Shown piece after piece: positions 20,871-37,815 of a stretch of 64,000 nucleotides of DNA (the first letter of the stretch is position 1; the number at the start of each line of letters is the position of its first letter). The notes beneath the pieces were generated by a model. That model searched no databases, was not told the origin of the DNA, and saw nothing but the letters and a program-made list of their open reading frames with translations. The position numbers and the translations under genes are program-made. This DNA comes from a virus. The stretch covers positions 23,154 through 87,153 of the IMG/VR virus record IMGVR_UViG_2791355197_000001; one strand, 5' to 3'.

Positions 20871-22553
20871 TCAAAGGACCGTGGCCCTCGGCTTTGCGCG
20901 GCCATGAGCCTTCGGGTTGGTCGCCATCAGATAGGCGGAGTTGAACATCGCGATCGCGGGATCGATCTTCGCGTCGCCAGCGGTTTGCTTCGTCGCGCGG
21001 ATCGCTGTTGCCGTCGGCTCGATCTTCAGGTTGCTGACGCACCAATCCATCATCGAGCTCGGTGCGTGCCGAAGCTTTCCCGAGACCAGCATGCGTTCGC
21101 AGGTCTTGATGCTGTTCATCATGCCGAACCCCTGCGGGGCGCCGATGAGCAGCTTGTTGTCGACGGTGATGTCGACTTCCTTGTCTGCCAATGCGTCGAC
21201 GAACTCGCCGAGACCGGCCGGGTCGACTGCGACACCACCGAGGAGCCGCCGGTCCTTCACCAGCTTGATGATGCGGACGATCTTCGAGATGTCCTGCAGC
21301 GAGTCGTCGACGATGGTGAGATCGCCCTCCTTCTCGAATTGAAGCAGGCGCGGCGCGATCGACTGCCTGAGCTCGAGCACGCCGCGGTGGCACCAGGCGT
21401 GGACCCAAAGGAGCCAGTCGCGCGTTTCGCGGTGCCGGCCCATCAGGCTGAGACCGAACAAGTCGTCGAGGCCGCCGCCGTCAATGCCGGGGACGATGAC
21501 GTCGCAAACCTTGAAGAGATGCCGAAGCGTGATCCTGTCGTCGTCTCGCTTCTGCCAATGCGCGGCACCAGCCCAGCGGTTGGCCCGCAGGTTCATGCCG
21601 ATCTCGACGTTGAGATGCTTGGCTAGGAAGGTGTTGAGCGCGAGATCGCTGCCGCGCTGGGCCTTGATCAATTCGCCCAGCAACCACTCGGTGCTGACGG
21701 ACTTGTCGAGGTTTGGGTTCGTGATCCGCCAGTTCGACGGATCGAGATAAGCCTTCTTGGCCAGCAGCGCGGCCGGGAATTCGTAGAGCACGCCAAGGCT
21801 GGTCGGATCCACGATCTTTCCGTCTCGGACGTCGCGGAAGTAGTCCAGCTTCTCCTTGAACACGCCGGTCGGTGGAGCGTCCGACTGGGTCGTGAGGAAG
21901 ATGACAAAACCTTCCGGCCTCGATACCAGGCCGCCGAGCGCCTCCTGGAACATCGCAGAGGCATTGGCGCGCTTGCCGAAGATCCAGAGCTCGTCGATCA
22001 GGACGAAGGCAGCCTTCTTGCCGCCGACGACATCGGTATCGGCGGCGACCACCTTGAGGACAGCGTCGGTGGTCAGATGCGTGATCTGCCGGTAGTTGTC
22101 CTGGACGTGCAGCAGATCCTTCAGCTTGGGGTGCAGCCGGACCATGGCTGCCGCCGGCACGAACGAGTTGTTGGCGATCTCGATCGTCGGCGCCAGGATC
22201 AGCAGTTCGGCGCCGTGCCGCCAGTTCCGCACCAGCGCGGTGACCATGATGCCGGCAGCGATCGTCGACTTGGTGTTCTTCTTGCTGATCAGCAGCAAGA
22301 ATTCGCGGATCAGCCGCTTCGCCTGCCCGTGGTCATAGGCGCCGAAGATCGCCCGAACGAATTCGAATACCCAAGGCTCGCAGACCTCGCCGAAGGTCGG
22401 TTGTCGCGGCAGATCGTAGATCCGGAGCGACTTAAACACCTCGAGGGCGGCGTCGGCCTCGCTCGGGAACAGCGGCTCGAACGGGATCAGGCTCTGGCCC
22501 GCAATGATCCTCCGTTCCCAGTCCGGGCAAGCCGTAGACCAAGCCAGGGTCAT
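20871..22553 (-). CDS. terL: Terminase large subunit
   Basis: ISKKNTKST Walker A, LIDELW Walker B, GIDGGGLDDL nuclease motif, KIDPAIA. Confidence 0.95.
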   Translation of the reverse strand: MTLAWSTACPDWERRIIAGQSLIPFEPLFPSEADAALEVFKSLRIYDLPRQPTFGEVCEPWVFEFVRAIFGAYDHGQAKRLIREFLLLISKKNTKSTIAAGIMVTALVRNWRHGAELLILAPTIEIANNSFVPAAAMVRLHPKLKDLLHVQDNYRQITHLTTDAVLKVVAADTDVVGGKKAAFVLIDELWIFGKRANASAMFQEALGGLVSRPEGFVIFLTTQSDAPPTGVFKEKLDYFRDVRDGKIVDPTSLGVLYEFPAALLAKKAYLDPSNWRITNPNLDKSVSTEWLLGELIKAQRGSDLALNTFLAKHLNVEIGMNLRANRWAGAAHWQKRDDDRITLRHLFKVCDVIVPGIDGGGLDDLFGLSLMGRHRETRDWLLWVHAWCHRGVLELRQSIAPRLLQFEKEGDLTIVDDSLQDISKIVRIIKLVKDRRLLGGVAVDPAGLGEFVDALADKEVDITVDNKLLIGAPQGFGMMNSIKTCERMLVSGKLRHAPSSMMDWCVSNLKIEPTATAIRATKQTAGDAKIDPAIAMFNSAYLMATNPKAHGRAKPRATVL

Positions 22554-22752: not shown

Positions 22753-23208
22753 CTACTCGTTGACCGCGGTATTGTCGATCACCAGGCCAATCTTCGGTGG
22801 CTCAGGCGGCTGAAATGCCCCCGATGAAGCCACTCGCTCCGCCGCGGCCTTGCGCTCCGCCTTCTTCCCGACCTTCTCCGGCGCCGGCGGTGCAGCCGGT
22901 ACCTCGACGCCGGCGTTTCCGAGATCGGCGATCGCCTGAGCAGCGGCCGACACCCGGGTCATCTCCTCGAGCTTCTTGATGCAGGTGGCGTTGCCCTTCT
23001 TCGCCTGCTTGAAGAGCATCCCGACCACTTCGGCCCGCTTCTTGGCCACACCGGTCGCAATCTCTTCGGGGAAGGACTTCACCAGCGTCGGCGTCGAGAT
23101 CCCGAGCACTCGAGCGCATTCATCCTGGGACATTCCGCACGAGATCCACTCCTCGACCTTCGTGCGCTGCGCTTTCGTCGGTTTGAACGCCGGCCGACCT
23201 CGGGCCAT
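22753..23208 (-). CDS. terS: Terminase small subunit
   Basis: MARGRPAFKPT...GMSQDECARVLGISTPTLVKSF (HTH), GKKAER C-terminus; upstream of terL. Confidence 0.8.
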   Translation of the reverse strand: MARGRPAFKPTKAQRTKVEEWISCGMSQDECARVLGISTPTLVKSFPEEIATGVAKKRAEVVGMLFKQAKKGNATCIKKLEEMTRVSAAAQAIADLGNAGVEVPAAPPAPEKVGKKAERKAAAERVASSGAFQPPEPPKIGLVIDNTAVNE

Positions 23209-23264
23209 GCCGAAACTCCAATTTCTTTGCCGTTTTGGGTGAACTGGACGAAATTTCCGGTCGG

Positions 23265-23350
23265 CCCAAAAAAAATTGTGCGAATGAGCCCCCGTGCGGT
23301 AGGGGGTCCCGCCGGTTCCTAGACTTTTCGACCCCATACCCCTTGGCCTC
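23265..23350 (-). other. Putative cos / packaging-initiation region
   Basis: Minus-strand GGGGTATGGGGTCGAAAAGTCTAGGAACCGGCG...GCACAATTTTTTTT just upstream of terS; resembles the G-run/A-T-run layout I recall upstream of terS in HK97-like phages (pattern recall, not verified). Confidence 0.4.
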
Positions 23351-23558
23351 GAGCGGCTGGCCGGCATGGCGCGCGCTGGCGTGTCGTCGGCGCTGGCGCT
23401 GGATTGGTCGGGGCGTTCGGCCTGGCTGATCAGTGTCAGCCGATATGCTGGCGCCCGTGGCGCCGCGCCGCGCGCGGCAACCGTCCGCGCTCTCTCTCGC
23501 CTGTCTGTCTAGGTGGTGACGTTCTGTTGACGTGGCAGGCGCGCGCCGATCCGCCGAG

Positions 23559-23732
23559 CTAGGCCGCACCATGCGGCGCGCTATCGCTGGGCATTGCGTC
23601 CCATGCGTCGGCGCTGGTGATGGTGCTGCGCTCAACCCGGATGACTGGCAGCACAATGACGGTTGCAGGCTGGCGCCGTTGTCGGCGGGCTCCGCGTGGC
23701 GCGCTGGGCGGTAGCTCGACTACCTCGCCCAT
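23559..23732 (-). CDS. Small hypothetical protein
   Basis: MGEVVELPPS...PATVIVLPVIRVER, 57 aa. Confidence 0.4.
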   Translation of the reverse strand: MGEVVELPPSAPRGARRQRRQPATVIVLPVIRVERSTITSADAWDAMPSDSAPHGAA

Positions 23733-23751
23733 GCCGTGCCCCTGACATGCG

Positions 23752-23785
23752 AAACCCGCCAAGGCGGTGCGACCTGGCGGGCTTT
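23752..23785. terminator. Hairpin, possible terminator
   Basis: AAACCCGCCA/TGGCGGGCTTT imperfect inverted repeat. Confidence 0.4.
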
Positions 23786-23960
23786 GGTTTGCAGCGACAA
23801 TGCGCCGAATGCCTGTTCTGAATCGCAAATTGAGTCGGCTGTCAAACCGCTGTCGCACGGGTTGGCAGTGGATGACGGCGCCGACGGCGCTTGATGCATC
23901 TCAATTCCGTGATAGTTGCGGACTGGATGACTGCGGCATAACTCAATCTTGAGGCGTCCA

Positions 23961-24272
23961 ATGACCGATACAAAGGCGAGCAAGGGCACGGCCAAACGCA
24001 AGCCAGCAAGCCGGGCCTTCTCTTCCGCTGATGCTTCACTGAGAATCAGCGCGGCTGAATTCCGGGCCTGGCAGGAAGGCGCCAGCCTCTCGAATGCCGC
24101 AGCTGCGCGCCTGCTCTACGTGTCTGAAAATACCTTGGCGCAGTACCGGGCCAATGGTGCGGGGCCGGATATCGCGCGCCAGATTTGGGCGATCATTGCC
24201 GGGATAAGGCCGGATACTGGACGGCAGCGCGCCGAATTGCTGGGCCGGATCAATGCCGCGCTAGGCGCCTAA
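23961..24272 (+). CDS. Cro/XRE-like HTH protein, first gene of the plus-strand array
   Basis: GAGG RBS before ATG 23961; ISAAEFRAWQEGASLSNAAAARLLYVSENTLAQY HTH pattern. Confidence 0.7.
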   Translation: MTDTKASKGTAKRKPASRAFSSADASLRISAAEFRAWQEGASLSNAAAARLLYVSENTLAQYRANGAGPDIARQIWAIIAGIRPDTGRQRAELLGRINAALGA

Positions 24273-24414
24273 TGCCTCAATATTGCGATACCAAGCCGGG
24301 CCATTCTAACTTTTTTTCGCAATTTTGCGTTTTGCCAGTTGACGGCCGCGCCGATATCTGCGCATGTACGCATCACCACGGCGCGATTGTGCGCAACTTC
24401 AAAGGCCCGGCGAA

Positions 24415-24588
24415 ATGATCCCCTTCATTTCCTTTTGTATCGCTAACCCGGCTTTCACTCTGGCCATGCTCGCAGCGATCTATACCGCTTGCTGGGCCGC
24501 CCTCGTCCCCTTCCTTTACGCGCCCGCCAAGTCTCGGCGCCTTTCGATCCGGCGCCGCGCGCGCCGCTCCAGCTTGTCGCGCCGCTGA
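24415..24588 (+). CDS. Small membrane protein (57 aa)
   Basis: Follows motif A copy 1; hydrophobic N-terminal half and Arg-rich tail. Confidence 0.55.
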   Translation: MIPFISFCIANPAFTLAMLAAIYTACWAALVPFLYAPAKSRRLSIRRRARRSSLSRR

Positions 24589-24639
24589 GGCGGTGCGGCT
24601 CAACCCGCGCAATCGTGCGCAACTGAAAAGGCAAACTCG

Positions 24640-24711
24640 ATGAAAGACTTTCTTCTCTTCCTCGCCGTGGCGTTCGTTGGAACGCTTGTAATCGTCGCCT
24701 GCTGTATCTGA
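24640..24711 (+). CDS. 23 aa hydrophobic peptide MKDFLLFLAVAFVGTLVIVACCI
   Basis: Follows motif A copy 2 and AAAAGG; single-TM composition; below the ORF-track cutoff. Confidence 0.55.
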   Translation: MKDFLLFLAVAFVGTLVIVACCI

Positions 24712-24803
24712 CGATTTGCAGCCTATGCCGTGCACGTCGCGGCATAAACGGCAAATCGCCGAACCCCGCGCAATTGTGCGCAACTCCAAAGGAAGTAACT
24801 GCA

Positions 24804-25682
24804 ATGACTGTCTACACCTCAACCGCCCGTTTCGATGGTACCGCCCGCGCTCTCACCGAGAACGAATTGCGCAAGCTGGCGCCGTCGGTTTTCGCGGTCG
24901 ACGCTCACCATTCACGTTCCGAACGCTTCCAGCCTATCCCGACGTTTGACGTGCTGCGCGCGCTGATGGCGGAAGGCTTCCAGCCCGTCGGCGCGAAACA
25001 GAGCGTTGCCCGGCTCGATGATCGCCGCGACTTCACCAAGCATCTGATCCGCCTGCGCCGTCTCGACAACGCCGCAACCTACACCGTCGGTGACACCGTC
25101 TGCGAAATTCTCCTCAAGAATGCCAATGACGGGACATCGGCCTATGACTTGATCGCCGGGCTTTTCCGTGTCCGTTGCCTCAACAGCCTTGTGGCGCAGG
25201 TCGGCACCGTCGAATCCGTCAAGGTCCGCCACACCGGCACCGCGCAGGATGTTTCGCACAAGGTGATTGAGGGCACCTATCGCGTGCTGGGCGAGGCCCA
25301 GAAGGCTCTATCGGCGCCGCAGGACTGGGCGCGCCTGGCACTCGACCGCGACGAAAAGCAGGTGCTGGCAGAAGCCGCGCACGTTCTGCGGTTCGGTGAT
25401 GCGGAAGGCGAAACGAATACGCCGATTCAGCCCGCGCAGTTGCTGCAGCCGCGTCGCCGCGACGACGTCGCCGCCGATCTCTGGACTACGTTCAATGTGG
25501 TTCAGGAAAACGTCATCCGTGGCGGGCTGTCAGCTCGCGGGCTCGATGCCAACGGCCGCCGCCGTCGCGTCACGACTCGCGCCGTTAACGGGATTGATCA
25601 AGACGTGAAACTGAACCGCGCCCTTTTCACGCTCGCGGCCAAAATGGCGGAGCTCAAAGGCGCGGCTCGCATCGCGGCCTAA
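24804..25682 (+). CDS. DUF932 family protein
   Basis: LAPSVFAVDAHHSRSERFQPIPT, FTKHLIRLR, LKNANDGTSAY, GLFRVRCLNSLV, DLWTTFNVVQENVIRGG. Confidence 0.9.
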   Translation: MTVYTSTARFDGTARALTENELRKLAPSVFAVDAHHSRSERFQPIPTFDVLRALMAEGFQPVGAKQSVARLDDRRDFTKHLIRLRRLDNAATYTVGDTVCEILLKNANDGTSAYDLIAGLFRVRCLNSLVAQVGTVESVKVRHTGTAQDVSHKVIEGTYRVLGEAQKALSAPQDWARLALDRDEKQVLAEAAHVLRFGDAEGETNTPIQPAQLLQPRRRDDVAADLWTTFNVVQENVIRGGLSARGLDANGRRRRVTTRAVNGIDQDVKLNRALFTLAAKMAELKGAARIAA

Positions 25683-25694
25683 GCGATTGCAGCC

Positions 25695-25719
25695 CATGCC
25701 CGGGCTTGTCCCGGGCATG
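25695..25719. repeat. Rhizobial REP-like palindrome CATGCCCGGG-CTTGT-CCCGGGCATG
   Basis: Perfect 10 bp stem; resembles the extragenic palindromes I recall from Bradyrhizobium-group genomes. Confidence 0.6.
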
Positions 25720-25776
25720 ATCGGCAACCGCCGGAAACCGCGCAATTGTGCGCAACTCGAAAAAGGGAAAATTGCC

Positions 25777-25881
25777 ATGAAGTATCGCCGCCACGATTCC
25801 GACCGCAAGCCAACCGACAAGCGGACTCGCCGCGCCGTGCTGAGCCAAGGCAAGCGCGCCTTTCTGAATTCCTGCCTCTGA
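25777..25881 (+). CDS. 34 aa basic peptide
   Basis: MKYRRHDSDRKPTDKRTRRAVLSQGKRAFLNSCL after motif A copy 4. Confidence 0.55.
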   Translation: MKYRRHDSDRKPTDKRTRRAVLSQGKRAFLNSCL

Positions 25882-25893
25882 GGAGCTAGGCCT

Positions 25894-26190
25894 ATGCCTG
25901 TTATCGAACTGGACGGCGCAGTCTATTTCAATTGCTGTACCGGCACCGCTGCGCCGGATTGGTCTCAATTCGTCGCGCTCGAAACCGGCGGCTGCACTAC
26001 GGAAACAGACGCGCGAACGGGCCAAGAATGGACCAACGGCGGAGAGCCGGACGACGTTGCCGAATTCTGGACTGTTTACGGCCGCCTGAAGGAAGGCGGT
26101 TGCGAGGCCATTACGGATTGCAAGACGCGGGCTGAGGTTGACGCGGTCGCGCTCCGCCTCTCCGAGCTATCCGGGCTTCCCGTTCATTGA
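25894..26190 (+). CDS. Acidic hypothetical protein (98 aa)
   Basis: GAGG RBS; EFWTVYGRLKEGGCEAITDC. Confidence 0.7.
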   Translation: MPVIELDGAVYFNCCTGTAAPDWSQFVALETGGCTTETDARTGQEWTNGGEPDDVAEFWTVYGRLKEGGCEAITDCKTRAEVDAVALRLSELSGLPVH

Positions 26191-26282
26191 CGTTGCGACA
26201 CTGCGCAGGCCTGGCCCTGCGCAGCACGGAACGCCAAAGCGGACTAACGCGCGATTGTGCGCAACTCAAAAGGACTCTGGAT

Positions 26283-26486
26283 ATGCGAGGGATTTGGACT
26301 CTCTACGTCGACCAATACGGCAACCGCTGGGGCGCCAGCACGGTTGCGGAGCTGCGCGGCAAGATCGGCGGCGGGCGCATCGCCAAGATGTATCGCGACA
26401 AGGCGAACGGCCGCGCCGTCCACTGCGGCTACATCATCGGTTCGCATTGGTGCACCGCTTATAGGCCTGTCGAGGTGCCCGCATGA
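26283..26486 (+). CDS. Hypothetical protein (67 aa)
   Basis: After motif A copy 5; MRGIWTLYVDQYGN...KMYRDK...HCGYIIG. Confidence 0.7.
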   Translation: MRGIWTLYVDQYGNRWGASTVAELRGKIGGGRIAKMYRDKANGRAVHCGYIIGSHWCTAYRPVEVPA

Positions 26487-26623
26487 TGGCGGAGACATTC
26501 ATTCCCGACAACATCCACGGGATTCCCGTTGGCTTCTACACGGACCGCGGAATCGCCGCGCTGCTGCGCAGTTTCTGCCGTTATCCCGCCGCGGTGCGGT
26601 TCATTGCGGACATGCTGGAATAG
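26483..26623 (+). CDS. Hypothetical protein (46 aa)
   Basis: ATGA-coupled; MMAETFIPDNIHGIPVGFY...FIADMLE. Confidence 0.55.
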   Translation: MMAETFIPDNIHGIPVGFYTDRGIAALLRSFCRYPAAVRFIADMLE

Positions 26624-26691
26624 CGCGGGCCTGGCCCGCCGACGTTTCGAACCCGCGCGATTGTGCGCAACTGAAAGAGGAGCAATTCAAC

Positions 26692-27255
26692 ATGGCTTGG
26701 CAGTTCTATGACTTTTTCGTCCATCCGACTATCCACGGGCCGATGCCGGAAAAGCGCTGGATTCCGGCCGCAAACGACAAGCCGCACAAGGTGCGGCGTA
26801 GCTCGAAAGTCACCCGCACCGCTGGCGGCGTGTCCGCTGACGATTTGAACGAACGCCACGCAATCGAGTACGCGCGTTGGCTGGCGCGGCGAGACAACGC
26901 CGATATCCCGTCCGGTACCTCGCCGCTAATCATCTGGGACGGCGTGACAGACGCCGCCGGAAAATGGCGCAAGCGCGCCCGTGCAGTCGAGTTTGGCACG
27001 CGGCGGACAACTCACACCGGCTACGGCCGAAACGCCTGCACAACGCACCACTGGGACGTCGCCGCCCGGATCGAAATTCCGCATTGGGATTGGCAGCCCG
27101 CCGAACCGGTTGAGGAGATCACTCCGGAAGCGGTACCGGTCCCGGTTGCGCCTTCCTTCAAGATCCCGGGCAGGATCCTGCGGACATCATGCCTTGTGCC
27201 AGTTTTGGCGCGTGTCCCGGTTGCGCCTTCCTGCGCAATTCGGCTTGCGGCTTGA
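26692..27255 (+). CDS. Hypothetical protein (187 aa)
   Basis: After motif A copy 6 and GAGGAG; MAWQFYDFF...SCAIRLAA. Confidence 0.7.
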   Translation: MAWQFYDFFVHPTIHGPMPEKRWIPAANDKPHKVRRSSKVTRTAGGVSADDLNERHAIEYARWLARRDNADIPSGTSPLIIWDGVTDAAGKWRKRARAVEFGTRRTTHTGYGRNACTTHHWDVAARIEIPHWDWQPAEPVEEITPEAVPVPVAPSFKIPGRILRTSCLVPVLARVPVAPSCAIRLAA

Positions 27256-27265
27256 GACGGCGCCG

Positions 27266-27625
27266 ATGAAACGCCAGCAAGCTCCGACGTTCAATCAACT
27301 TTGCGATGCATTGCAGTCGCGTCCTTCGCCGCGCTCGCAAGCCGAATGGCGCGAGGCCTCAACAGCCATGCGCCTGGCCCGGCGCCATCCCGGCCGCGTC
27401 GGCCGAACGATCTATATCGAATGCGGGACATTTGCGCGCCGCATTTACCTTGAGGCCACTTGGGGCGGGGTGAATTGCTACAACGGCCCGCACCCATTCG
27501 GCTACGTCAACATGATCGCTCACCACCGGTTCGTGCTCCGGCAGGGACTGCGGGAAGGCCGCGTTGCGGAAGCCCGACACTTTGCTGAGGCCTCGCGCCT
27601 CCGCGGGCCGGTGCCGCTGCCATGA
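27266..27625 (+). CDS. Hypothetical protein (119 aa)
   Basis: MKRQQAPTFNQL...; co-oriented and tightly packed. Confidence 0.55.
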   Translation: MKRQQAPTFNQLCDALQSRPSPRSQAEWREASTAMRLARRHPGRVGRTIYIECGTFARRIYLEATWGGVNCYNGPHPFGYVNMIAHHRFVLRQGLREGRVAEARHFAEASRLRGPVPLP

Positions 27626-27729
27626 CGCGAAAGCCTCAACCCCGCAAACAGCGCTGCCCCTACTGCAGGCAGTTGCGGCCGTTCTACATGATCGCCGCAC
27701 ACATCACCCAATGCGAGGCGCTTAGGTAG
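27622..27729 (+). CDS. 35 aa C2HC zinc-finger-like peptide
   Basis: MTRKPQPRKQRCPYCRQLRPFYMIAAHITQCEALR, ATGA-coupled. Confidence 0.5.
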   Translation: MTRKPQPRKQRCPYCRQLRPFYMIAAHITQCEALR

Positions 27730-27832
27730 CGTCCCGGCTACGACCGATTTCCACGGTGGATGACGTTCCCCCCCGGCGTCGGCCGATTCCAAATCCGCGC
27801 AATAGTGCGCAACTGAATAGGAGGTTTCCGAG

Positions 27833-29251
27833 ATGACTGACAGCAACACCAAGCGCGCATTTTCGCCTACCGGTAGCGAAATCGTCGCCACCGCCGACAT
27901 GATCCCCGGCAACGCGATGTGCTTTTTCTATGGCCGCAACGCCGATGGCACGCTCGAAATGGACCATTCGAGCGAGGGCACTCGCATGTGCTGGGATGGC
28001 GCCATCACCAAGACCGACGAGCGCGGCCAAACCCTATTCATCGCCCAGGACGGCACCGAGTGGCCCGAAGATTCGATCCACCTGGAAGGCGAGGAGCCGC
28101 GCCAGATGCCGGCCGCGCCGGATTCCCCGGTTGCGCCTCTTCTCTCCGCTCGCGAGCATGCAACCGTTTTGGCCGCTCTACGCCACTGGCAGCGCCATCA
28201 AGCTGATAGCGTCGGCGTGAGCCGCAACGTGATCCCGGAGGACGATATCGCCACTATCGGCGGCACCGTGGCGCCTATGCGCGCCGCTGAGGTCGATGCC
28301 CTTTGCATGCGGCTCAACTCCCCGGTTGCGCCTTCGCCCGATTGGCGCGAGATCGCGCGCGACCTGGCTGGCGCGCTCGACGCCTGCAGCCATCAGATTG
28401 GCCAGATGTCCGGCATGTTCGATGACGAGGACGGAACGATCGCGGCCGCCGTCTCGGACGCTGATGACGCGACGGAGTCCTATCGCAAGGCCATCGCTGG
28501 CGCACGGCCTTCGCGCTCGCCTGCGCTCGGAACGGTTTGGACCTGCACCACCGACGGCGACGAGTGCGCGCTCACCACAACCATTCACGCCACGGAAGCG
28601 GAGGCGCTGGAGCGTGTTCGCGACGACTTGCGGATGGATTGCAAGCCAAACCAATTGAAGCACCTTGGGGCGCTGCCCGCGGTTGATTTGCCGGAAGCGT
28701 GGACCGAAGCCAACGACGGCGCGTGCATCATCGAAAGCCACAAATTGCCGTGCCTCCCCGCTGCGCCCTCGCCCCTTGCCGTCGTGGTTGAACAGGGCCT
28801 TGTCGCGCGCGTCATGTCCGACAATCCCGAGCTGATCGGTGCGCCGGTGCTGCTGATCGATCATGACACCGAAGGCGCCGACGCCGACGATGTTTTCCAG
28901 ATCGCCGCGAATGACGGCAGGGCCGTGTCAATCGTCGGCCACATCTTCAACGTCGAGGCATCGGACGTGCACTTGCCAGCTGTCATGGCAACCATGCTGG
29001 AGCGCGGCCGCGACTTGCGGCAGCCACCTGGCGGATTTCCGGGTCAGGATGATCGGGCGCGCGCCGAAGGCTGGTGTCTGATTGAGGACGCTGGCGGGCT
29101 GCTGCGCATCGAGGCTGACAGCGACTCCGACATTTTCAGCCCGGGCGGCGTCAGCCACGACGACGAGGCCGAGGCCTTCGTCAAGGCGAAAGCGGCCGAA
29201 GGCAGCGAGTATCACATCGCGGCGCTTGCCCGGGTCGGCACCGCGCAATAG
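27833..29251 (+). CDS. Mosaic multi-domain hypothetical protein (472 aa)
   Basis: After motif A copy 7 and GGAGG; several short acidic modules separated by SPVAP/PAAPSP linkers. Confidence 0.75.
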   Translation: MTDSNTKRAFSPTGSEIVATADMIPGNAMCFFYGRNADGTLEMDHSSEGTRMCWDGAITKTDERGQTLFIAQDGTEWPEDSIHLEGEEPRQMPAAPDSPVAPLLSAREHATVLAALRHWQRHQADSVGVSRNVIPEDDIATIGGTVAPMRAAEVDALCMRLNSPVAPSPDWREIARDLAGALDACSHQIGQMSGMFDDEDGTIAAAVSDADDATESYRKAIAGARPSRSPALGTVWTCTTDGDECALTTTIHATEAEALERVRDDLRMDCKPNQLKHLGALPAVDLPEAWTEANDGACIIESHKLPCLPAAPSPLAVVVEQGLVARVMSDNPELIGAPVLLIDHDTEGADADDVFQIAANDGRAVSIVGHIFNVEASDVHLPAVMATMLERGRDLRQPPGGFPGQDDRARAEGWCLIEDAGGLLRIEADSDSDIFSPGGVSHDDEAEAFVKAKAAEGSEYHIAALARVGTAQ

Positions 29252-29339
29252 CCCCGGCTACGATCGATTTCCCTCACCCCCGAGCTACGACCGATTTCGC
29301 AAGGCGCAATCGTGCGCAACTGAAAAGGAGCAAGATCAC

Positions 29340-31496
29340 ATGAACCATACCGCCACCTATTCGCCCGATGACAACAAATTGCGCCTCTATCCCGCGCACC
29401 GCCTCGACGCCGAGGAGTACGCGCGCGTAAAGGCCGCCGGCTTCAAGTGGGCGCCGCGTCAAGAACTGTTCGTCAAGCCGACCTGGTCGCCGGAAGCCGA
29501 GGACCTGCTGATTGATCTCGCTGGCGAGATCGGCGACGAGGATACGAGCCTGGTGGATCGCGCCGAGCAGCGCGCCGACCGTTTCGAGGACTACAGCGAC
29601 AAGCGCCTCGCCGACGCCGAGCGCGCGCGGAAGACGGTCGATGAGATCGCAGAGCGCTTCTACATGGGTCAGCCGATCCTTGTGGGCCACCATTCGGAGA
29701 GGAGCGCGCGCAAAGACAAAGAGCGCATGGACAACGGCATGCGCAAAGCTCTCAAGCTCTGGGATACCTCGAACTATTGGACCGCGCGCGCGGCCGGCGC
29801 GATCGCTCACGCGAAATACAAAGAACTGCCGGCCGTCCGGCATCGCCGCATCAAGACCATCGAATCCGACAAGCGAAAGCTGGAAAAGTCGACGGCCGAG
29901 AATGAGCGTCAGCTCAAAGCTTGGCGGATTGTCGCCAGCATCACCGACGCCGAGAAGCAGCGCTCAACCGGTCTCACCGTGGCGAACGTCGGCGGCTATT
30001 GGTCAATGTCTTTCCCCCTGGCCGACTATCCGCGCGATCCGCCGGCCTCGCAGTACGAGGGCCCCATGGGCCTTTGGTCGGCTATCGATGGGAACGTCAT
30101 CACGGCCGCCACGGCAGCCGAGCTTGCGATTGCTGGCCTGGAACGCTCAGCCCCGCGCAAAGCCCGCTGGATTGCTCATTACGACAACCGCCTGGCCTAT
30201 GAACGCGCGATGCTGGCCGAGCAGATCGGAACGGAGGCGAGCGCCAACCCGCTGGCCGACCGCTTCGCTTTCGCTGTCGGCGGCCAAGTGCATGCTGGCC
30301 GATACGACGAATGGCTGACCGTGACGAAGGTCAACCGCGGCGCCAACGGTTCGGTTTCAAGCATCACCACCACCACGCCGGCCGGCTCGCGCAACAAGCT
30401 GGCGCGTTGGCGAGTCGAGAGCGTCCGCGACTATCAGGCGCCGAGCGAGGAGACCGTCGCCGCGGCGAAGGCGGCAAGCAAGCTCCCGCCGCTCTGCAAC
30501 TATCCCGGCGATGACTTCGCCCGCCTGACTCAGGATGAATACGACAAGGTTCCGAAGGACTATCGAGGTTATCGACCGCGTGCCGCTACCGAGACGGTCG
30601 GCGCGCACCGTACCCGCGTAGCCATCGGGGCCTATGCGTTCCGCGGCACCTGCGACCCCAACAAGCGACATTCCTACGCCGGGGTTTTCATCACGGATGC
30701 AAAGCGCGTCGACCCGCCCAAGGTCGTGCCAGCCCCCGAGCCGCAGGAGCCGGCCGAATTCGTCGCCGAGTATGTCGCGCCACCCGCTGTTGACCTTGAC
30801 GCGACGCTGGGAACAATCGCCGAGATCATGGCGGAGCCGTCGCCGGTTGAGTCCGTGCCGGAAGTCGTCCCGGTTGCGCCCGCGGAATCGCTGCGCCATC
30901 TCCCGGATACGGCCGATTTGCCGGCGCCGACAGCCGCGGACACGTTCGAGGCAATGCGGGCGATGCTCAGGGGTGGCGGCGTGCAGGTCGTCGTAGCCCC
31001 GCAACTCTTCGCGACCCCGCCCACCTTGGCGACCGATGTGATCGAGGCGGCAGACATTCAGCCCGGCCACCTGGTGCTGGAGCCGAACGCCGGCACGGGG
31101 GCCCTCGTCTATCCTGCACTGGAGCGCGGCGCGAGCGTTACCGCTGTTGAGATAAACGACGTCCTGGCGCGGACGCTCGGGCTCGATCGTCGGATATACC
31201 TGACGGTGCGACTCGATTTCCTCACTCTCGAACCGTCCGACGAGTGGATGTTTGACCGCGTCGTGATGAATCCCCCGTTCGAGCGCGGAGCAGACATCAA
31301 GCATATCGAGCACGCGCGGCGGTTTCTGAGACCTGGCGGCCGGCTGGTCGCGATCTGCGCCGACGGCCCGCGCCAACGGGCGAAGCTCGAACCGATCGCA
31401 GCGGAGTACCGCGCCTTGCCCGCCGGGTCCTTCAAGGCCGCCGGCACGATGGTCAACACGGCGTTGGTCGTCATCGACGGGCCGCCGCCTGGATAG
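29340..31496 (+). CDS. DUF3560-domain protein fused to an N6-adenine-type SAM methyltransferase
   Basis: N-terminal TATYSPDDNKLRLY, GQPILVGHHSER; C-terminal VLEPNAGTGAL (motif I) and VVMNPPF (motif IV). Confidence 0.88.
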   Translation: MNHTATYSPDDNKLRLYPAHRLDAEEYARVKAAGFKWAPRQELFVKPTWSPEAEDLLIDLAGEIGDEDTSLVDRAEQRADRFEDYSDKRLADAERARKTVDEIAERFYMGQPILVGHHSERSARKDKERMDNGMRKALKLWDTSNYWTARAAGAIAHAKYKELPAVRHRRIKTIESDKRKLEKSTAENERQLKAWRIVASITDAEKQRSTGLTVANVGGYWSMSFPLADYPRDPPASQYEGPMGLWSAIDGNVITAATAAELAIAGLERSAPRKARWIAHYDNRLAYERAMLAEQIGTEASANPLADRFAFAVGGQVHAGRYDEWLTVTKVNRGANGSVSSITTTTPAGSRNKLARWRVESVRDYQAPSEETVAAAKAASKLPPLCNYPGDDFARLTQDEYDKVPKDYRGYRPRAATETVGAHRTRVAIGAYAFRGTCDPNKRHSYAGVFITDAKRVDPPKVVPAPEPQEPAEFVAEYVAPPAVDLDATLGTIAEIMAEPSPVESVPEVVPVAPAESLRHLPDTADLPAPTAADTFEAMRAMLRGGGVQVVVAPQLFATPPTLATDVIEAADIQPGHLVLEPNAGTGALVYPALERGASVTAVEINDVLARTLGLDRRIYLTVRLDFLTLEPSDEWMFDRVVMNPPFERGADIKHIEHARRFLRPGGRLVAICADGPRQRAKLEPIAAEYRALPAGSFKAAGTMVNTALVVIDGPPPG

Positions 31497-31570
31497 CCCC
31501 CCGGCTGCGCCCTCTCGCTTACGACCGATTTCCCACCCCCCGGCTGCGACCGATTTGAGAGGAGACCCCC

Positions 31571-31810
31571 ATGACCGACTTCATCATCTGCAGAAACTGC
31601 GGCACCGAGGAGCACGCGCACCTGATCGACGCTAAGCCGGAGATCGGCGCCGATGAAAACAGCGACTTCACCCGCATGGAATGCATTGCCTGTTATGGGC
31701 CCGGCTGGCGACCGGCTGCATCAACGTCCGATTTCAAACTCTCGGTGGCGCCGCACTTAGCGCCGTACTACGCGGCCTATGCTGGGCGGATGGGCTGGAC
31801 ACCGCAGTAG
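31571..31810 (+). CDS. Small Cys-containing (zinc-ribbon-like) protein
   Basis: CRNC...CIAC; GAGAGGAG RBS after motif B. Confidence 0.65.
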   Translation: MTDFIICRNCGTEEHAHLIDAKPEIGADENSDFTRMECIACYGPGWRPAASTSDFKLSVAPHLAPYYAAYAGRMGWTPQ

Positions 31811-31885
31811 CCCGGCTGCGCCCCTGCGTACGACCGTTTTCCCGTCATCCCCTCGGCTACGGCCGATTCTGAAAGGAGAATTACC

Positions 31886-32257
31886 ATGCTCATCACCGTC
31901 AAGGCCGGCGCAAAAGTCGATGGTCACACGTTCAGCAAGGACTCGAACCAAAACTTCGGGCGAGAGAAAGCCGAAGGGCTTATCAAAGATGGCCGCGCGC
32001 AGCCCGTGGCGTTCGATGCTGAGGGTAACTGCCGGATCAATACCAGGTTTGATGCTTGGCTCAACGAGCACGGCGCCCTGGCTATCGGTTCCGGTGGCGA
32101 CGCCTTTCTGCATCTCTCATCAGAATTCCCGCTCGCGTACTTGCCCGAGGCCTTGCAAGCCTATCAAGCGGGGCATCACCACGGCATGGGTGACGGCCGC
32201 ATCAAGCTGCAGTCAGAGATGCGGGACCTGCTCTGCGTGGAGCCCGCTCGCACATGA
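31886..32257 (+). CDS. Hypothetical protein (123 aa)
   Basis: AAAGGAGA RBS after motif B. Confidence 0.7.
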   Translation: MLITVKAGAKVDGHTFSKDSNQNFGREKAEGLIKDGRAQPVAFDAEGNCRINTRFDAWLNEHGALAIGSGGDAFLHLSSEFPLAYLPEALQAYQAGHHHGMGDGRIKLQSEMRDLLCVEPART

Positions 32258-32529
32258 ACGCCGAGCAGATCATAGCTGCTGCCGGCCTCAAGATCGCGAC
32301 ACGCGCCGAGTTCGACGCCGAGTCCGACGTCCCCGCCGGGGTTCGCCTGTTGGCCGCGCGCATCTTCAAGCGTTGGGGCGGCGACTTCGTGGTGTACGAC
32401 CCGGCCGGCGGCGATGACGGCTGGCTGCTGATCGATGATGATCGCGACCAGATCATAGGCGAGACGGTCGAGCACCTCGGACGGCTCGAGCCTGAGCCGC
32501 CGGCGCCAGCGCAAGGCTCACTGTTCTGA
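32254..32529 (+). CDS. Acidic hypothetical protein (91 aa)
   Basis: ATGA-coupled; ends QGSLF. Confidence 0.65.
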   Translation: MNAEQIIAAAGLKIATRAEFDAESDVPAGVRLLAARIFKRWGGDFVVYDPAGGDDGWLLIDDDRDQIIGETVEHLGRLEPEPPAPAQGSLF

Positions 32530-32569
32530 TCCCCCGGATACGATCGATTTTGAACAATAGGAGAACGAT

Positions 32570-33136
32570 ATGACGCAATCCGACTACAAGCACGGCACCT
32601 GCGCATGGTGTGGCAACCAAGAAGAGGTTTTCCGCGACAACATGCTGTGCGACACCTGCGACAGCGATACGGTCTATTGCACTGTCTGCCGATCGCGCCA
32701 GCACCATGAATCGAAATGCCGCCACGTTTTCCAAAGCCACGGATGCGGCGAATGGCGCGGCGCCGGCTTCGATCCAATCGACAACGAGATGAAGGCACCT
32801 TTCCACCGCCTGTTGTCGGCCATGGGCGAAGACTTCGCGGTCGATCTGAAAACTGCGATCCGGTCAGGACGGTTCTTCACCTGGACAATAGCGCCGATGA
32901 TCGGCGGTGGCGGAATGCTGGAGCTCAACGGCATGCCGCAGCGCGACGGTCGTTCGATGCTATTCGAGTGGGGCGATGCCTTGATCAAGCTCGGCGAAGG
33001 ACGGCGCGCGGAGGAACTGCACGACGGCTATCGATGGATCGTGAGCCTATACAAGCGCAACACCACGAAGGCCAACCGGACCACCCTCGCCTGGATCGAT
33101 CAATGGTTGTGGCCTTTTGCCGGGGCCGCGTCATGA
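32570..33136 (+). CDS. Hypothetical protein with N-terminal Cys pairs
   Basis: CAWC, CDTC, CTVC, CRH; AGGAGA RBS after motif B. Confidence 0.7.
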   Translation: MTQSDYKHGTCAWCGNQEEVFRDNMLCDTCDSDTVYCTVCRSRQHHESKCRHVFQSHGCGEWRGAGFDPIDNEMKAPFHRLLSAMGEDFAVDLKTAIRSGRFFTWTIAPMIGGGGMLELNGMPQRDGRSMLFEWGDALIKLGEGRRAEELHDGYRWIVSLYKRNTTKANRTTLAWIDQWLWPFAGAAS

Positions 33137-33507
33137 GCCGAAGAGTCCGACGCGTTCCCGCAGACTGGCAGCACCCCCGCAACTCCGGCGGCCGCTATGT
33201 GCCGCTGGCTGAAGCCATTCCGGATGCGCCTGCGCCATACCCTGCGGCCAGCTATATGCCGGCTTGGCCAGCAGCGGAACGGACGCACTGGCAGTTGTAC
33301 GAGACCACCAGCGCCGGGACGCCGCTATCACCGCCCTGCCCGTCGCCCGAGGCCTTGGCCAAATGGCTGGCCGGCCACCATGTGGAGGCCGCACCGGGCT
33401 TCACGGGAACGGAGGCGCAATGGCTGGCCGCGATCAAGCGCGGCGGCGTCATCCCGCCGGTGATGACCGTCGGCAAGCGCCAGGTCAATCCGCTCGACTA
33501 CACCTGA
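33133..33507 (+). CDS. Conserved phage hypothetical protein
   Basis: RRVRRVPADWQHP...WQLYETTSAGTPLSP...PEALAKWL, a pattern I recognise from phage early proteins. Confidence 0.65.
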   Translation: MSRRVRRVPADWQHPRNSGGRYVPLAEAIPDAPAPYPAASYMPAWPAAERTHWQLYETTSAGTPLSPPCPSPEALAKWLAGHHVEAAPGFTGTEAQWLAAIKRGGVIPPVMTVGKRQVNPLDYT

Positions 33508-33601
33508 TCGGCCGGGACTCCCGGCTACGATCGATTTTGTGCTACCCCCTCGGCTACGGCCGATTCCGGGCGATTGTGCCCAACCGGAAAGGAACTCTCA
33601 G

Positions 33602-33925
33602 ATGTCCCCACCCCGATTTGTTCACCGCAAGATCTCGGCCGAGGACTTCAAGTCCGAACTGGCCAAACAAGGCATGTCAGTGCCGGCGTTCGCAAGGGTC
33701 TGGTGCCAGAACCTGTCGACGGTCACGAAATGGGCGAATGGCGGGAATGACATTCCGACCTGGGTGCCGATCGCGCTGACCATGATGACGCTACCGAACG
33801 CCCACGGGACCGCGCGCATGGCGGCCGCAGCGATGATCCAGCAGGACCGGCTGCATCCCGAACTCGGTGAATTCCCCTACCAGAAGCTGCGGCAGATGCC
33901 TGCGGACGACGAGATCGAGGAATAG
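33602..33925 (+). CDS. Cro/XRE-like HTH protein, last gene of the array
   Basis: ISAEDFKSELAKQGMSVPAFARVWCQNLSTVTKWANG; after motif A copy 9. Confidence 0.75.
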   Translation: MSPPRFVHRKISAEDFKSELAKQGMSVPAFARVWCQNLSTVTKWANGGNDIPTWVPIALTMMTLPNAHGTARMAAAAMIQQDRLHPELGEFPYQKLRQMPADDEIEE

Positions 33926-33932
33926 CCCCCGG

Positions 33933-34139
33933 CTACGATCGATTTTGCGGACCCCGCTTGCGCCTTGCTGCCTTGGCTGTCCGCTTTTTTGCCGGCGATC
34001 GCTTCACCGCTGGAGCCGCTGCCGGGGTCTTCGCTGCGTCCTCGGCATCGAGCTTGCGTTTCAGCGCTTGCATCTCCTCGTACCGGGCTTCCCGCTGCTG
34101 ACGCAGCCGGTCGGCGCGCGGTGATTGTTCGCGCCCCAT
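33933..34139 (-). CDS. Basic hypothetical protein (68 aa)
   Basis: Coupled to the 34139-34414 gene; Lys/Arg/Ala-rich. Confidence 0.5.
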   Translation of the reverse strand: MGREQSPRADRLRQQREARYEEMQALKRKLDAEDAAKTPAAAPAVKRSPAKKRTAKAARRKRGPQNRS

Positions 34140-34423: not shown

Positions 34424-34768
34424 CTACGATCTCATGCGGTTTGCTCGAGCCTGGATGCCGGCCCGGGTGTTGTGCGAGTTGCAGGCGCAGCGGCCATTAC
34501 TGAGATCCAGCGCCAATTCTGGCCGATCGCGCACATCCTGAATGTGATCGGCGTACATCTGGTCTCCCTTCTCACGGCTGCGCTCGCAACGGTGGCCGTT
34601 CTCGACGTATTCGCAGCGCCAACCTGCTCGCTTCTTGACCTGCAACGCCCACTGCTGATGCTCAGCAGTCTGATAGTGAGGATCCGCGCGCTTCGGCGGA
34701 GGCTTGACCTTCCTGGTGTCCAACGTCGGGACGCGTGGGCTGAGAGATGGGATGCGCGACCGCCTCAT
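34424..34768 (-). CDS. HNH endonuclease (HK97 gp74-like packaging cofactor)
   Basis: WRCE...C...ADHIQD...NGRCACNSHN. Confidence 0.85.
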   Translation of the reverse strand: MRRSRIPSLSPRVPTLDTRKVKPPPKRADPHYQTAEHQQWALQVKKRAGWRCEYVENGHRCERSREKGDQMYADHIQDVRDRPELALDLSNGRCACNSHNTRAGIQARANRMRS

Positions 34769-36153: not shown

Positions 36154-36648
36154 TCACATCGTGATGAACTTTGCGCCGAGCTGCCGCAGCATTTCGTAGG
36201 GCCCGATGTACTCGACGCCGAACTGCTTGCAGACATTCGGGATCTTCGGCTTCTTCGATGTGGCGTCGACGAGCTGCTCGCCTGTCACGACGATCATTCC
36301 GTCCACCTGGGCTCGGGCGATAAGCCAGGCGTCGGCACCCTTGAGGAATTCGCTGGCGTTGTGCTGCGGGTACGTCTTGACGACATATTCCGCGATTGGC
36401 TGATAGGCGGCCTGAACCGGCGCGGCCGGCGGCTGGAAGAACGGCGTGCCGTCGCGGTCCTTCACCCAAACAGCCAGTTCATCGCCGAAGCCGACCATCT
36501 CCTCGTAGACGGTGCGGCATGACACGATCCGGCCAGACGCTGACTCCTTGTCGAGCCAGGTCCAGAATCCGGGCACGATATCCATGGCGTAGGGGCCGTT
36601 CTGCGCTTGGATGAAAATGTTGCTGTCCAAACAGTACGGCTTCGGCAT
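36154..36648 (-). CDS. DUF4411 family PIN-like nuclease
   Basis: YCLDSNIFI, FWTWL, ADAWLIARA, VVTGE, KIPNVC. Confidence 0.88.
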   Translation of the reverse strand: MPKPYCLDSNIFIQAQNGPYAMDIVPGFWTWLDKESASGRIVSCRTVYEEMVGFGDELAVWVKDRDGTPFFQPPAAPVQAAYQPIAEYVVKTYPQHNASEFLKGADAWLIARAQVDGMIVVTGEQLVDATSKKPKIPNVCKQFGVEYIGPYEMLRQLGAKFITM

Positions 36649-36651
36649 CGA

Positions 36652-37815
36652 TCACCGCAGCTCCAACTTGTCGGCCACTGCACGCAGCAGCGGGACCTTG
36701 ACACCGAGCAGGCGCGCCGCATCCCGGTACAGGGTGCGGCCCTCGAACGTGGCGTTGATTACAGCCCTGGTGAACAGCGAACCGTTACGCGAGCGAAGGG
36801 TGACGTAGAAGTCGCCGCCGCCTTCATCGCCACCGCTGTCCCGCTGCCGGAAGCGGGCAAACTCGCGCCGATACATCTCGTCGATTTCGCGTTGGTCGAC
36901 GTCGAGCAGATCGGATGCCCGCCGCAGCAGCACCAGCGAACTCACGCGATAGCGCCGCACCAGATGGCCGATGTTGGCCTCGATGCTTACCTTGTAATTC
37001 CAGTGACGCCGCAGGCTTTCCGCCGGCACCAGCACCTCGGCCGCGACGGCGTTGCAGAACTGCTCGGTCCTCGCCTCTTGCCGCTGGCTCTGCGCCAGTT
37101 CGACGTTCGATATCCCGGTGGCGCCAATCCACAGGTGTGCTATCTCGTGCGCCAGCGTGAATATCTGTGCGGCTTTGGCGTCTCGGCCGTTGATGAATAC
37201 GAGCGGCGCCACCTTGTCGGCGATGGCGAAGCCGCGGAATTCGTCGACGGACAGCGCGCGGTGAGTGTTGTTGCCCACTATCCCGCTGCGCATTACCATG
37301 ACGCCCGCCGCCTCGGCCTGGCGGATGAATAGGCGTAGGAAATCCTCCCAGCTGCTCGCCTCCGCCCGCATGGCCTCATCGATCTTGAGTACCTCGGCGA
37401 TACTGCGCGCGACCTCGTTCGGGTCGCTCCTAATCGTGTAGGCGCCCACGAAGCCCAGCGGCTCGGCGCCCTCCTGCTGCCGGTAGTCCCGATACCACTC
37501 GTGCTTCCGGATGATATCGTTGACCAGGTCGTTAAAGTCGACACTAGGCCGCCGCAGTTCGGCGTTGCCCACGGTCCGCAGATCCGGCAACGCGAACTGC
37601 TCCGCCGGCGGGCTCTGCAGGAACAGGTAGCCGAATGGGATTCGCAGGACGTTCGCGAGGGTCTGCGCCTGCTTGAATGTTGGCTTGGCCTCGCCGTTCT
37701 CCCATGCATCGAGGCGGTCCGGCTTCACGCCGAGCCTTCCCGCCACGTCCTCCGGCGCGAGCTTGGACCGCTCGCGCGCCCAGCGCAGAACCTCCGGTGT
37801 GATGAGCGCTTCCAT
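36652..37815 (-). CDS. XRE HTH fused to ImmA/IrrE (M78) metallopeptidase
   Basis: N-terminal LRWARERS...WENGEAKPT HTH; FTLAHEIAH HExxH; EQFCNAVAAEVLVP. Confidence 0.92.
   Translation of the reverse strand: MEALITPEVLRWARERSKLAPEDVAGRLGVKPDRLDAWENGEAKPTFKQAQTLANVLRIPFGYLFLQSPPAEQFALPDLRTVGNAELRRPSVDFNDLVNDIIRKHEWYRDYRQQEGAEPLGFVGAYTIRSDPNEVARSIAEVLKIDEAMRAEASSWEDFLRLFIRQAEAAGVMVMRSGIVGNNTHRALSVDEFRGFAIADKVAPLVFINGRDAKAAQIFTLAHEIAHLWIGATGISNVELAQSQRQEARTEQFCNAVAAEVLVPAESLRRHWNYKVSIEANIGHLVRRYRVSSLVLLRRASDLLDVDQREIDEMYRREFARFRQRDSGGDEGGGDFYVTLRSRNGSLFTRAVINATFEGRTLYRDAARLLGVKVPLLRAVADKLELR

Follow-up and report, generated by a model that had tools for sequence, protein, structure and literature searches.

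Repeated hairpins at ribosome-binding sites in a hypervariable gene array, probably an accessory operon, of temperate rhizobial phages

Introduction

We wanted to understand what short repeats do between the genes of a phage accessory region: do they serve to bring genes in, or do they serve to express the genes that are there? The question is raised by a window of 64,000 nucleotides (IMG/VR record IMGVR_UViG_2791355197_000001; positions 223433-287432 of C45 in an 8.4-Mb Bradyrhizobium genome), which belongs to a prophage with its lytic genes on the minus strand. Between the terminase small subunit gene terS and an HNH endonuclease gene lies a plus-strand block of about 19 open reading frames (ORFs; g1-g19, 23961-33925), divergent from terS and convergent with the HNH operon. 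A sequence-only reading of this DNA had presented the block as a candidate for a new phage array system, in which about 17 genes, taken to be modular and co-regulated anti-defence units, are added or shuffled at three short repeats, A, B and C. The plus-strand block of about 10 kb within a minus-strand region is indeed there, with a gene count nearer 19. Our own answer, which we hold to be probable, is that the array is a hypervariable accessory operon, probably expressed early and probably devoted to counter-defence, which occupies a fixed terS-HNH slot in temperate rhizobial phages; its junction modules would work at the RNA level, and recombination between the repeats would be a by-product.

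Results

Motif A (GCGCRATNGTGCGCAAC) is present in eight exact copies and one variant (GGGCGATTGTGCCCAAC), where 0.46 would be expected by chance. Every copy in the window lies on the plus strand, 16-20 nt upstream of a start codon: at 24381-24397 before g2, 24607-24623 before g3, 24768-24784 before the DUF932 gene g4, 25740-25756 before g5 (g6 follows), 26249-26265 before g7 (the coupled g8 follows), 26655-26671 before g9 (g10 and g11 follow), 27797-27813 before g12 and 29304-29320 before g13. The variant, A' (33568-33584), stands before g19 and has a compensatory stem, GGGC/GCCC. No true copy of motif A or motif B was found outside the array in the 8.4-Mb genome. A relaxed pattern, hairpin plus Shine-Dalgarno (SD) sequence, matched nine times in the 9 kb of the array and 46 times, scattered, in the remaining 16.8 Mb (both strands). 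Nearly every cistron that is neither translationally coupled nor placed behind motif B has motif A in front of it, and with one conserved hairpin before nearly every uncoupled cistron, the proposed co-regulation is plausible.

Relatives of the array were found through proteins and through pattern scans of IMG/VR. Two Bradyrhizobium genomes (L031 and L032) were reached by way of the DUF932 protein, and six further proviruses by exact-pattern scans of IMG/VR. Exact motif A occurred only as single chance copies in 400 genomes of the family, and none of the isolated phages in INPHARED carried the array. With the window, these relatives make nine phages that share one frame: terL and terS reading leftwards, then g1 to g19, then HNH and DUF6456, again reading leftwards. 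In the nine arrays, 87/87 copies of motif A follow the orientation of the genes, with a start codon 12-24 nt downstream. The motif ends 3-5 nt upstream of a uniform SD module (UGAAAGGA), and in 86/87 copies motif A is followed after 4-7 nt by the AGG of the SD, while the bases in between vary; this constrained spacing ties motif A to the ribosome-binding site. Positions G1, G3, C4, A6, G9, T10, G11, C12, A15 and A16 vary little or not at all, and A' before g19 is kept in 9/9 phages. A genome-specific homogenisation of position 17 was considered and dropped, as the pattern tracks phage relatedness.

Motif A is a hairpin, with a stem of 4-5 bp, an A-N-N-G loop closed by R-U and a 3' AA, and this hairpin is present in the minimum-free-energy folds of whole junctions. 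In 94 copies, 99.7% of the stem cells are paired, double-sided changes occur at two pairs, and the observed pairing value was reached by 0 of 500 shuffles. The stem pairs that are not Watson-Crick comprise 58 G·U on the sense strand and no A·C. Beside the stems GCGC and, in A', GGGC/GCCC, others were seen in more remote arrays. In two Mesorhizobium loci (L033 and L077), where copies were found by a mismatch search without any pairing requirement, the stems read GCCC/GGGC (three copies) and GCTC/GAGC around an unchanged loop. Distant relatives add the stems GGCC, CGGC/GCCG, TGCC/GGCA, TCGC/GCGA, GGTC/GACC and TGGC/GCCA, followed by the same A-rich SD module, and variants of the loop also occur, such as ANNA in L274. 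Covarying arms around a conserved centre are the reverse of what a palindromic operator in double-stranded DNA would give. Together with mismatches that are G·U on the sense strand only, they suggest that motif A is an RNA element coupled to translation starts rather than a DNA operator or promoter. These data point to a start-associated RNA hairpin, which would act at the RNA level. No Rfam family matched.

In phage phiC31, conserved inverted repeats are repressor sites spread through intergenic regions. Motif A might likewise be an operator in double-stranded DNA, of this type or of the stoperator type, with a repressor at each junction that blocks elongation and keeps the array silent in the lysogen. 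The motif A sites do resemble the stoperators of phage L5 in being short, asymmetric, oriented, intergenic and numerous in one genome (PMC3203893); moreover, a promoter-like element is found shortly upstream of the first copy, and the array holds two helix-turn-helix (HTH) genes. We nevertheless find this explanation quite improbable. The stoperators of L5 are double-stranded DNA sites identical to the early-promoter operator, whereas motif A has no copy outside 24381-33584 in the window, hence none at the immunity region near the S24-peptidase gene, and none elsewhere in the prophage or the genome. The covarying arms with their constant centre, the restriction of stem mismatches to sense-strand G·U and the constrained spacing to the SD also speak against it.

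Motif B (CCGGMTACGRYCGATTT) was found in 10 copies when two mismatches were allowed, or 10-12 overall, against 0.08 expected, and within the genome it occurs in the array only. Both A and B were thus rightly singled out as repeats by the sequence-only reading, while its motif C turned out to be two different things, coding copies (CCCGGTTGCGCC) and intergenic copies (CCCGGCTGCGCC). The junction order that it gave (stop codon, GC hairpin or motif B, motif A, SD, ATG) is correct. A motif B copy lies directly after the stop of g11 (27734-27750) and is followed by a B2-like hairpin (27773-27789); a pair (29254-29270 and 29281-29297) fills the space between the stop of g12 and the eighth motif A copy. 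Further along, an intergenic motif C is followed by two B copies (31500-31556; B at 31515-31531 and 31540-31556), then by an SD and g14, and a second intergenic motif C with a B2 hairpin, UCGGC-UACG-GCCGA (31811-31869; B2 at 31853-31869), leads to an SD and g15. Another B copy (32534-32550) sits between the stop of g16 and the SD of g17, a B1 copy and a B2 hairpin (33521-33537 and 33550-33566) between the stop of g18 and A', and the last B copy (33929-33945) after g19. Directly behind the latter is a terminator-like hairpin (33947-33990, plus strand), GCGGAC...GTCCGC followed by T6, where the transcription unit probably ends.

Two forms of motif B can be told apart. B1 (CCGGCTACGATCGATTT) follows the stop codon at a distance of 3-5 nt, and this stop is TAG in 18/30 cases, for instance at 33923-33945, against 70/221 (32%) overall. 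The GGCTA of B1 is able to pair with TAG(C/T)C, and the stop codon may belong to the repeat unit. The pairing of stop codon and B1 was itself set aside as weak, its apparent covariation coming from a few orthologous junctions. B2 (TCGGCTACGGCCGATTY) is a hairpin whose 5-bp stem is fully paired and whose loop, C(UACG)G, is of the UNCG type. Neither form has a U tract, and the terminator scan called none of them, for which reasons motif B was rejected as a canonical terminator; we regard it as an RNA element at cistron ends. A GC-rich hairpin at 25680-25782 (z = -3.2) likewise has no U tract and was not called by the scan. In the distant loci, copies of the B core lie on the array strand only in L273, L274 and L276, and none was found in L272.

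Junction DNA is found inside genes as well. The coding copies of motif C are always read in frame as P-V-A-P, in four unrelated protein families. In the linker of g13 (30867-30919), motif C (PVAP) and motif B (LPDTAD) stand together in frame in 9/9 phages; other in-frame stretches of this kind lie at 27139-27255 and 28124-28337 of the window and in fam24 of L258, L259, L261 and L262. The B and C copies within ORFs sit in proline-rich linkers or C-terminal tails of unrelated proteins, and two families share a C-terminal tail, PVAPxCAIRxx, encoded by motif C and a degenerate motif A. Evidently, junction DNA was absorbed into coding sequence through fusions or loss of stop codons, although PVAP/LPDTAD could be a short linear peptide motif instead.

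We looked for promoters at the junctions. Motif A was rejected as a promoter, since it has no -35/-10 hexamer pair and its halves are only 10 nt apart, and a consensus scan of the plus strand found neither a sigma-70 promoter nor an intrinsic terminator at any junction. A sigma-70-like TTGACR with a 17-nt spacer lies 38-43 nt upstream of motif A at two junctions only: after g1 (window 24339), and before the DUF3560 gene in seven relatives. The first is a promoter candidate, TTGACG-17 nt-GCATGT (24339-24367, plus strand), which ends 13 nt before the first motif A, and this arrangement of promoter-like element and motif A after g1 recurs in most related phages. At such a distance, a primary transcript would carry motif A at its 5' end.

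These observations bear on a second explanation, in which the junctions are mobile regulatory cassettes like the promoter early stem-loops (PeSLs) of T4-type phages. PeSLs join a strong sigma-70 early promoter and an effective terminator between non-essential ORFans (PMC2839356, PMC4122927). Applied to the array, motif B and the GC hairpins would be terminators, motif A a promoter and each gene a unit of its own, with cassette recombination as the main driver of shuffling. The order of hairpin, motif A and SD does resemble the PeSL order of terminator and then promoter (PMC2839356, PMC4122927). In addition, both systems place short composite motifs between the ORFans of a hypervariable region, with indels bounded by the motifs, which supply homology for modular shuffling. 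What is conserved in the array, however, is a hairpin linked to the SD; motif A has no promoter hexamers, motif B no U tract, TTGACR accompanies motif A at two junctions only, and gene order is not broken preferentially at the repeats. The hosts differ too, as the array belongs to temperate siphovirus-type phages of alphaproteobacteria. On balance, a PeSL-like system seems to us very unlikely.

The gene content of the slot is highly variable. Among the nine arrays we counted 87 gene families, of which 3 are universal (g1, the DUF3560-methyltransferase and g19) and 41 are singletons; the gene calls in the relatives come from our own heuristic (third-position GC content and SD), by which some small ORFs and the 41 starts classed as "other" are unreliable. 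The shared families are colinear across the arrays. The g1 family, A2, is found in 9/9 phages with 38-94% identity, the DUF3560-methyltransferase in 9/9 and DUF932 in 4/9. One family, absent from the window and present in 5 relatives, is ArdC-N (28.1 bits, cutoff 22.6) and also matches a PHROGs anti-restriction protein; Pfam gave no match for twenty other array families tested. Comparison with homologous prophages had been put forward as the test of cassette exchange, and it came out positive: the eight relatives keep the frame and the repeats, and no case of identical gene order without variation in content was seen among them. That the hairpins are kept while gene content differs suggests an "expression socket" for swappable genes. 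Repeats of this kind were absent from 76/80 DUF932 loci, so they are not a property of DUF932 contexts. As an example of the wide range of cargo, the array of L276 (4991-9892) contains genes for an ATP-dependent DNA ligase domain protein, a DUF5983 protein and a 442-aa DUF4942 protein.

How, then, do genes enter and leave? Five or six clean indels show one repeat copy (A or B) at the empty site and two copies flanking the insert. The best example, flanked by motif A copies 7 and 8, is g12 (window 27823-29298) when compared with L032, and further clean indels occur between IMG/VR phages. In about 10 more indels only one side has a repeat, and in about 8 neither side does. Gene-family adjacency was kept in 0.45 of the comparisons at repeat junctions and in 0.37 at coupled junctions, so that there is no preferential breakage at repeats, and 59 coupled junctions join genes without any repeat. 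The claim that units are shuffled at the repeats is in part upheld by the repeat-flanked indels, and exchange is not concentrated there. The repeats are homology for ordinary recombination and neither its sole nor a dedicated route.

We also considered whether the array is an integron-like capture system, with A and B as the sites of a specific recombinase. The genes are small, mostly promoterless, without known function and all in one orientation, their boundaries carry structured repeats, and the five or six clean indels are of the expected form. As the sequence-only reading had noted, however, no integrase lies beside the array, and neither an integrase nor any other recombinase was found in or next to it in any of the 9 phages; integrons have an IntI-type tyrosine recombinase and attC palindromes of 57-141 bp, and the array has junction motifs of 17 nt, many joins without repeats, and the flanks terS/terL and HNH/DUF6456/PIN/DnaB in all relatives. 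The absence of a recombinase, with breakage no higher at repeat junctions, argues against a dedicated cassette system. Furthermore, motif A follows the SD and not the cassette boundary, many indels have a one-sided repeat or none, and junction DNA has been absorbed into ORFs. Dedicated capture is thus the least credible of the explanations that we considered.

The last gene of the array, g19 (33602-33925), encodes a 107-aa XRE-type HTH protein and is a candidate regulator of the anti-CRISPR-associated (Aca) kind. It is the most conserved array protein, with 71-96% identity among the 9 phages. Its AlphaFold2 model (pLDDT 66) is an XRE-type HTH, for which the best fold matches, all with weak E-values, were HigA2, MqsA, C-controller proteins and Aca2. 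No Pfam or PHROGs family matched it, a profile search of the PDB was empty, and it had no sequence match to a known Aca family. BLASTP found no similarity between g1 and g19, the HTH genes at the two ends being no detectable paralogues. Among the 80 DUF932 loci, the 4 with motif A, and no others, contain g19 homologues; g1 homologues occur in only two. The g19 family comprises 84 clusters in a large protein collection, mostly from Bradyrhizobium and soil.

Five distant g19 homologues (41-58% identity) were fetched, and four of them lie with same-strand arrays of small genes and A-type hairpins, the fifth being on a truncated contig. The gene is last in the nine Bradyrhizobium-type arrays and in 3/5 distant loci (L273, L274 and L276), and the distant arrays belong to phages with terminases of the HK97 or GpA type. 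Elsewhere, a same-strand gene for a HerA_C (PF05872) ATPase directly follows the g19 homologue, often with overlapping ends (L033, 15458-17225; L077, 13482-15449; L272, 10001-11777; L275, 679-2744). In the Mesorhizobium loci L033 and L077, no terminase or HNH gene was found within 10 kb, which indicates that the module of hairpin and g19 is also present in another kind of element. At 6979-8289 of L274, just past the g19 homologue, we observed a gene for a TROVE-domain (Ro60-like) protein beside an HNH_3 gene.

Only g4 and g13 among the roughly 19 array ORFs were named by Pfam and PHROGs, and in both cases the domains read from the sequence alone were confirmed. The first, g4 (24804-25682), matches DUF932 (Pfam 3e-34; phrog_12094 2e-101), and the second, g13 (29340-31496), combines DUF3560 (aa 71-189) with an NPPF amino-methyltransferase (aa 555-715). 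The others are ORFans, which include cysteine-rich proteins and membrane peptides of 23-57 aa. At the left end, g1 (23961-24272), which has no motif A upstream, encodes a 103-aa HTH-like protein with a weak HTH_17 match and weak XRE matches in the PDB, followed by the membrane peptides of g2 (24415-24588; 57 aa) and g3 (24640-24711; 23 aa). After g4 come g5 (25777-25881) and g6 (25894-26190), then g7 (26283-26486) with the translationally coupled g8 (26483-26623), g9 (26692-27255), g10 (about 27368-27625), g11 (27622-27729) and g12 (27833-29251), a 472-aa ORFan for which no plasmid relatives of note were found. Behind g13 lie g14 (31571-31810), g15 (31886-32257) with the coupled g16 (32254-32529), and g17 (32570-33136) with the coupled g18 (33133-33507). 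All of these genes are on the plus strand.

The neighbours on both sides are on the minus strand. On the left lie the genes for the portal (19563-20861) and the terminase large subunit (terL, 20871-22553), and terS (22753-23367; phrog_309, terminase small subunit, 8e-8). On the right, the HNH gene (34424-34768; phrog_589 8e-11, with a weak Pfam HNH match) is followed by DUF6456, a pair of XRE-M78 peptidase and DUF4411 genes, DnaB, a primase, a beta clamp and several DNA methylases. In the pair, which is placed between DUF6456 and DnaB, the XRE-HTH/M78 (ImmA/IrrE) peptidase gene (36652-37815) is directly upstream of the DUF4411 PIN-like gene (36154-36648), and it looks like a toxin-antitoxin or defence-type pair. 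The beta clamp of DNA polymerase III (46301-47710) has 469 aa; its three clamp domains begin only at about residue 100, behind an N-terminal extension. At least five DNA methyltransferase domains were seen in the prophage (39476-41541, 43674-46088, 49696-50319 and 29340-31496): two N6_N4_Mtase, an 804-aa C5 methylase fusion, MT-A70 and the NPPF enzyme of the array.

The gap between terS and g1 (about 23560-23960) contains a hairpin, AAACCCGCC...GGCGGG, kept in 9/9 phages. Also in 9/9 phages, it contains a promoter-like pair, GACAAT-N17-CTGAATC, and two GANTC (CcrM-type) sites about 10 nt apart. This gap may hold cos and a cell-cycle-linked promoter.

Discussion

What might the array do for the phage? 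We infer that it is expressed early and has an anti-defence role. The latter, which the sequence-only reading had already proposed, stands as an association with DUF932 (4/9), with the DUF3560-methyltransferase (9/9) and with ArdC-N in 5 relatives; we found no paper testing DUF932 or DUF3560. A similar assembly of ArdC-N, an orphan methyltransferase and many small genes of unknown function in one orientation is seen in the anti-defence islands of the leading regions of conjugative plasmids (PMC11541004), although DUF932 and DUF3560 are not mentioned in the main text of that paper. Unlike these islands, the array belongs to a phage and has no promoter elements of the single-stranded DNA kind. 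Its slot between terS and HNH hints that the array is placed beside cos, and it may lie at the end of the DNA that enters first.

Alternatively, it could be the lysogen that the array serves, by way of superinfection exclusion, of defence or of lysogenic conversion, and not the infecting phage and its counter-defence. It has promoter-like elements and a terminator of its own, it is oriented against the lytic operons, it encodes small membrane peptides, and most of its cargo has no known function. We consider this unlikely, since the cargo that could be annotated (ArdC-N, an orphan amino-methyltransferase, DUF932) is of the anti-restriction and plasmid-establishment kind, and an HTH gene at the end of the operon together with hairpins at ribosome-binding sites matches the control of anti-defence operons. 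Defence domains of the PADLOC type were not noticed, a scan with the PADLOC library not having been made.

In the reading that we favour, an early counter-defence operon controlled through its RNA, the junction modules would act mainly on the mRNA. The hairpin of motif A would set the 5' context of each ribosome-binding site, as a stabiliser or insulator of the 5' end after transcription start or processing, and motif B would mark the ends of cistrons. Since many junctions share the same modules of 17-45 nt, these could be substrates for ordinary homologous recombination that adds or removes cassettes. As an alternative within this reading, motif A might be the operator through which a single trans-acting factor sets the timing of translation for the entire operon, and g19 would then be the best candidate. 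Aca2 and Aca1 are HTH proteins encoded at the end of anti-CRISPR operons which bind RNA hairpins beside the ribosome-binding site, and such motifs are reported between the genes of operons as well (PMC13551039). The array is like these operons in its small HTH gene at the 3' end and in its conserved stem-loops beside ribosome-binding sites. It differs from them in that g19 matches no known Aca family in sequence, that no known anti-CRISPR gene was recognised in it, that one operon has 9-11 hairpins instead of one or two, and that the stems vary, so that recognition, if any, would be by the loop.

By this analogy, g19 may be the reader of the motif A hairpin. Taken further, motif A and g19, or another single factor, could form an operon-wide translational control in which one reader of the ANNG-loop hairpin acts before 9-11 cistrons. 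Any captured ORF would be instantly expressed and timed, A' (GGGC/GCCC) would exempt or tune g19, and the whole would be a plug-and-play standard for counter-defence common to HK97-like phages, lambda-like phages and non-phage elements of Rhizobiales. This extended version is speculative, and we rate it as possible but doubtful.

Several points weigh against our interpretation. No RNA run containing the array locus was found. Within the Bradyrhizobium group the stem is nearly invariant, and a few lineages account for most of the covariation; in L272-L276, the 21 copies were picked by a pattern that requires pairing, and the opposite strand gives 5-10 matches per locus as well. As for the cistron ends, B1 alone pairs poorly, and the consensus scan of the junctions returned no canonical terminators. 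Because the stems vary freely and an HTH protein would be expected to read the helix, g19 is a weaker candidate for a reader of the stem sequence, and any reader would have to recognise the loop and the 3' AA. Finally, the co-occurrence of g19 and motif A may come from a shared lineage of elements alone.

Another relevant precedent is found in the mycobacteriophages of cluster K, with their start-associated sequences (SAS) and extended SAS (ESAS). The SAS is a 13-bp sequence, GGGATAGGAGCCC, that includes the SD core and lies upstream of 10-19 non-structural gene starts per genome, for which a role in translation initiation was proposed; the inverted repeats of the ESAS have no compensatory support as RNA hairpins (PMC3203893). 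Like the SAS, motif A is an asymmetric repeat near starts, in a single orientation, absent from the host genome and kept before different gene families. Unlike SAS and ESAS, it has another sequence, is separate from the SD and covaries, and the array repeats are confined to one operon that has stop-associated repeats as well. With PeSLs, SAS/ESAS and the RNA motifs of Aca operons as precedents, the earlier description of a new array system went too far. What appears to be new is the combination of a covarying, SD-coupled hairpin before nearly every cistron, stop-associated repeats, the terS-HNH slot and a terminal HTH gene.

How newly acquired genes are expressed in the hypervariable accessory and counter-defence regions of phages is poorly understood, and this array offers a compact natural case. 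If g19 does read the hairpin, RNA binding by Aca-type proteins would extend from single leaders to operons of 20 genes and to the phages of alphaproteobacteria. The junction module is possibly useful as an insulating expression part. For rhizobial prophages, the hairpin together with g19 provides a search handle for dozens of candidate anti-defence genes.

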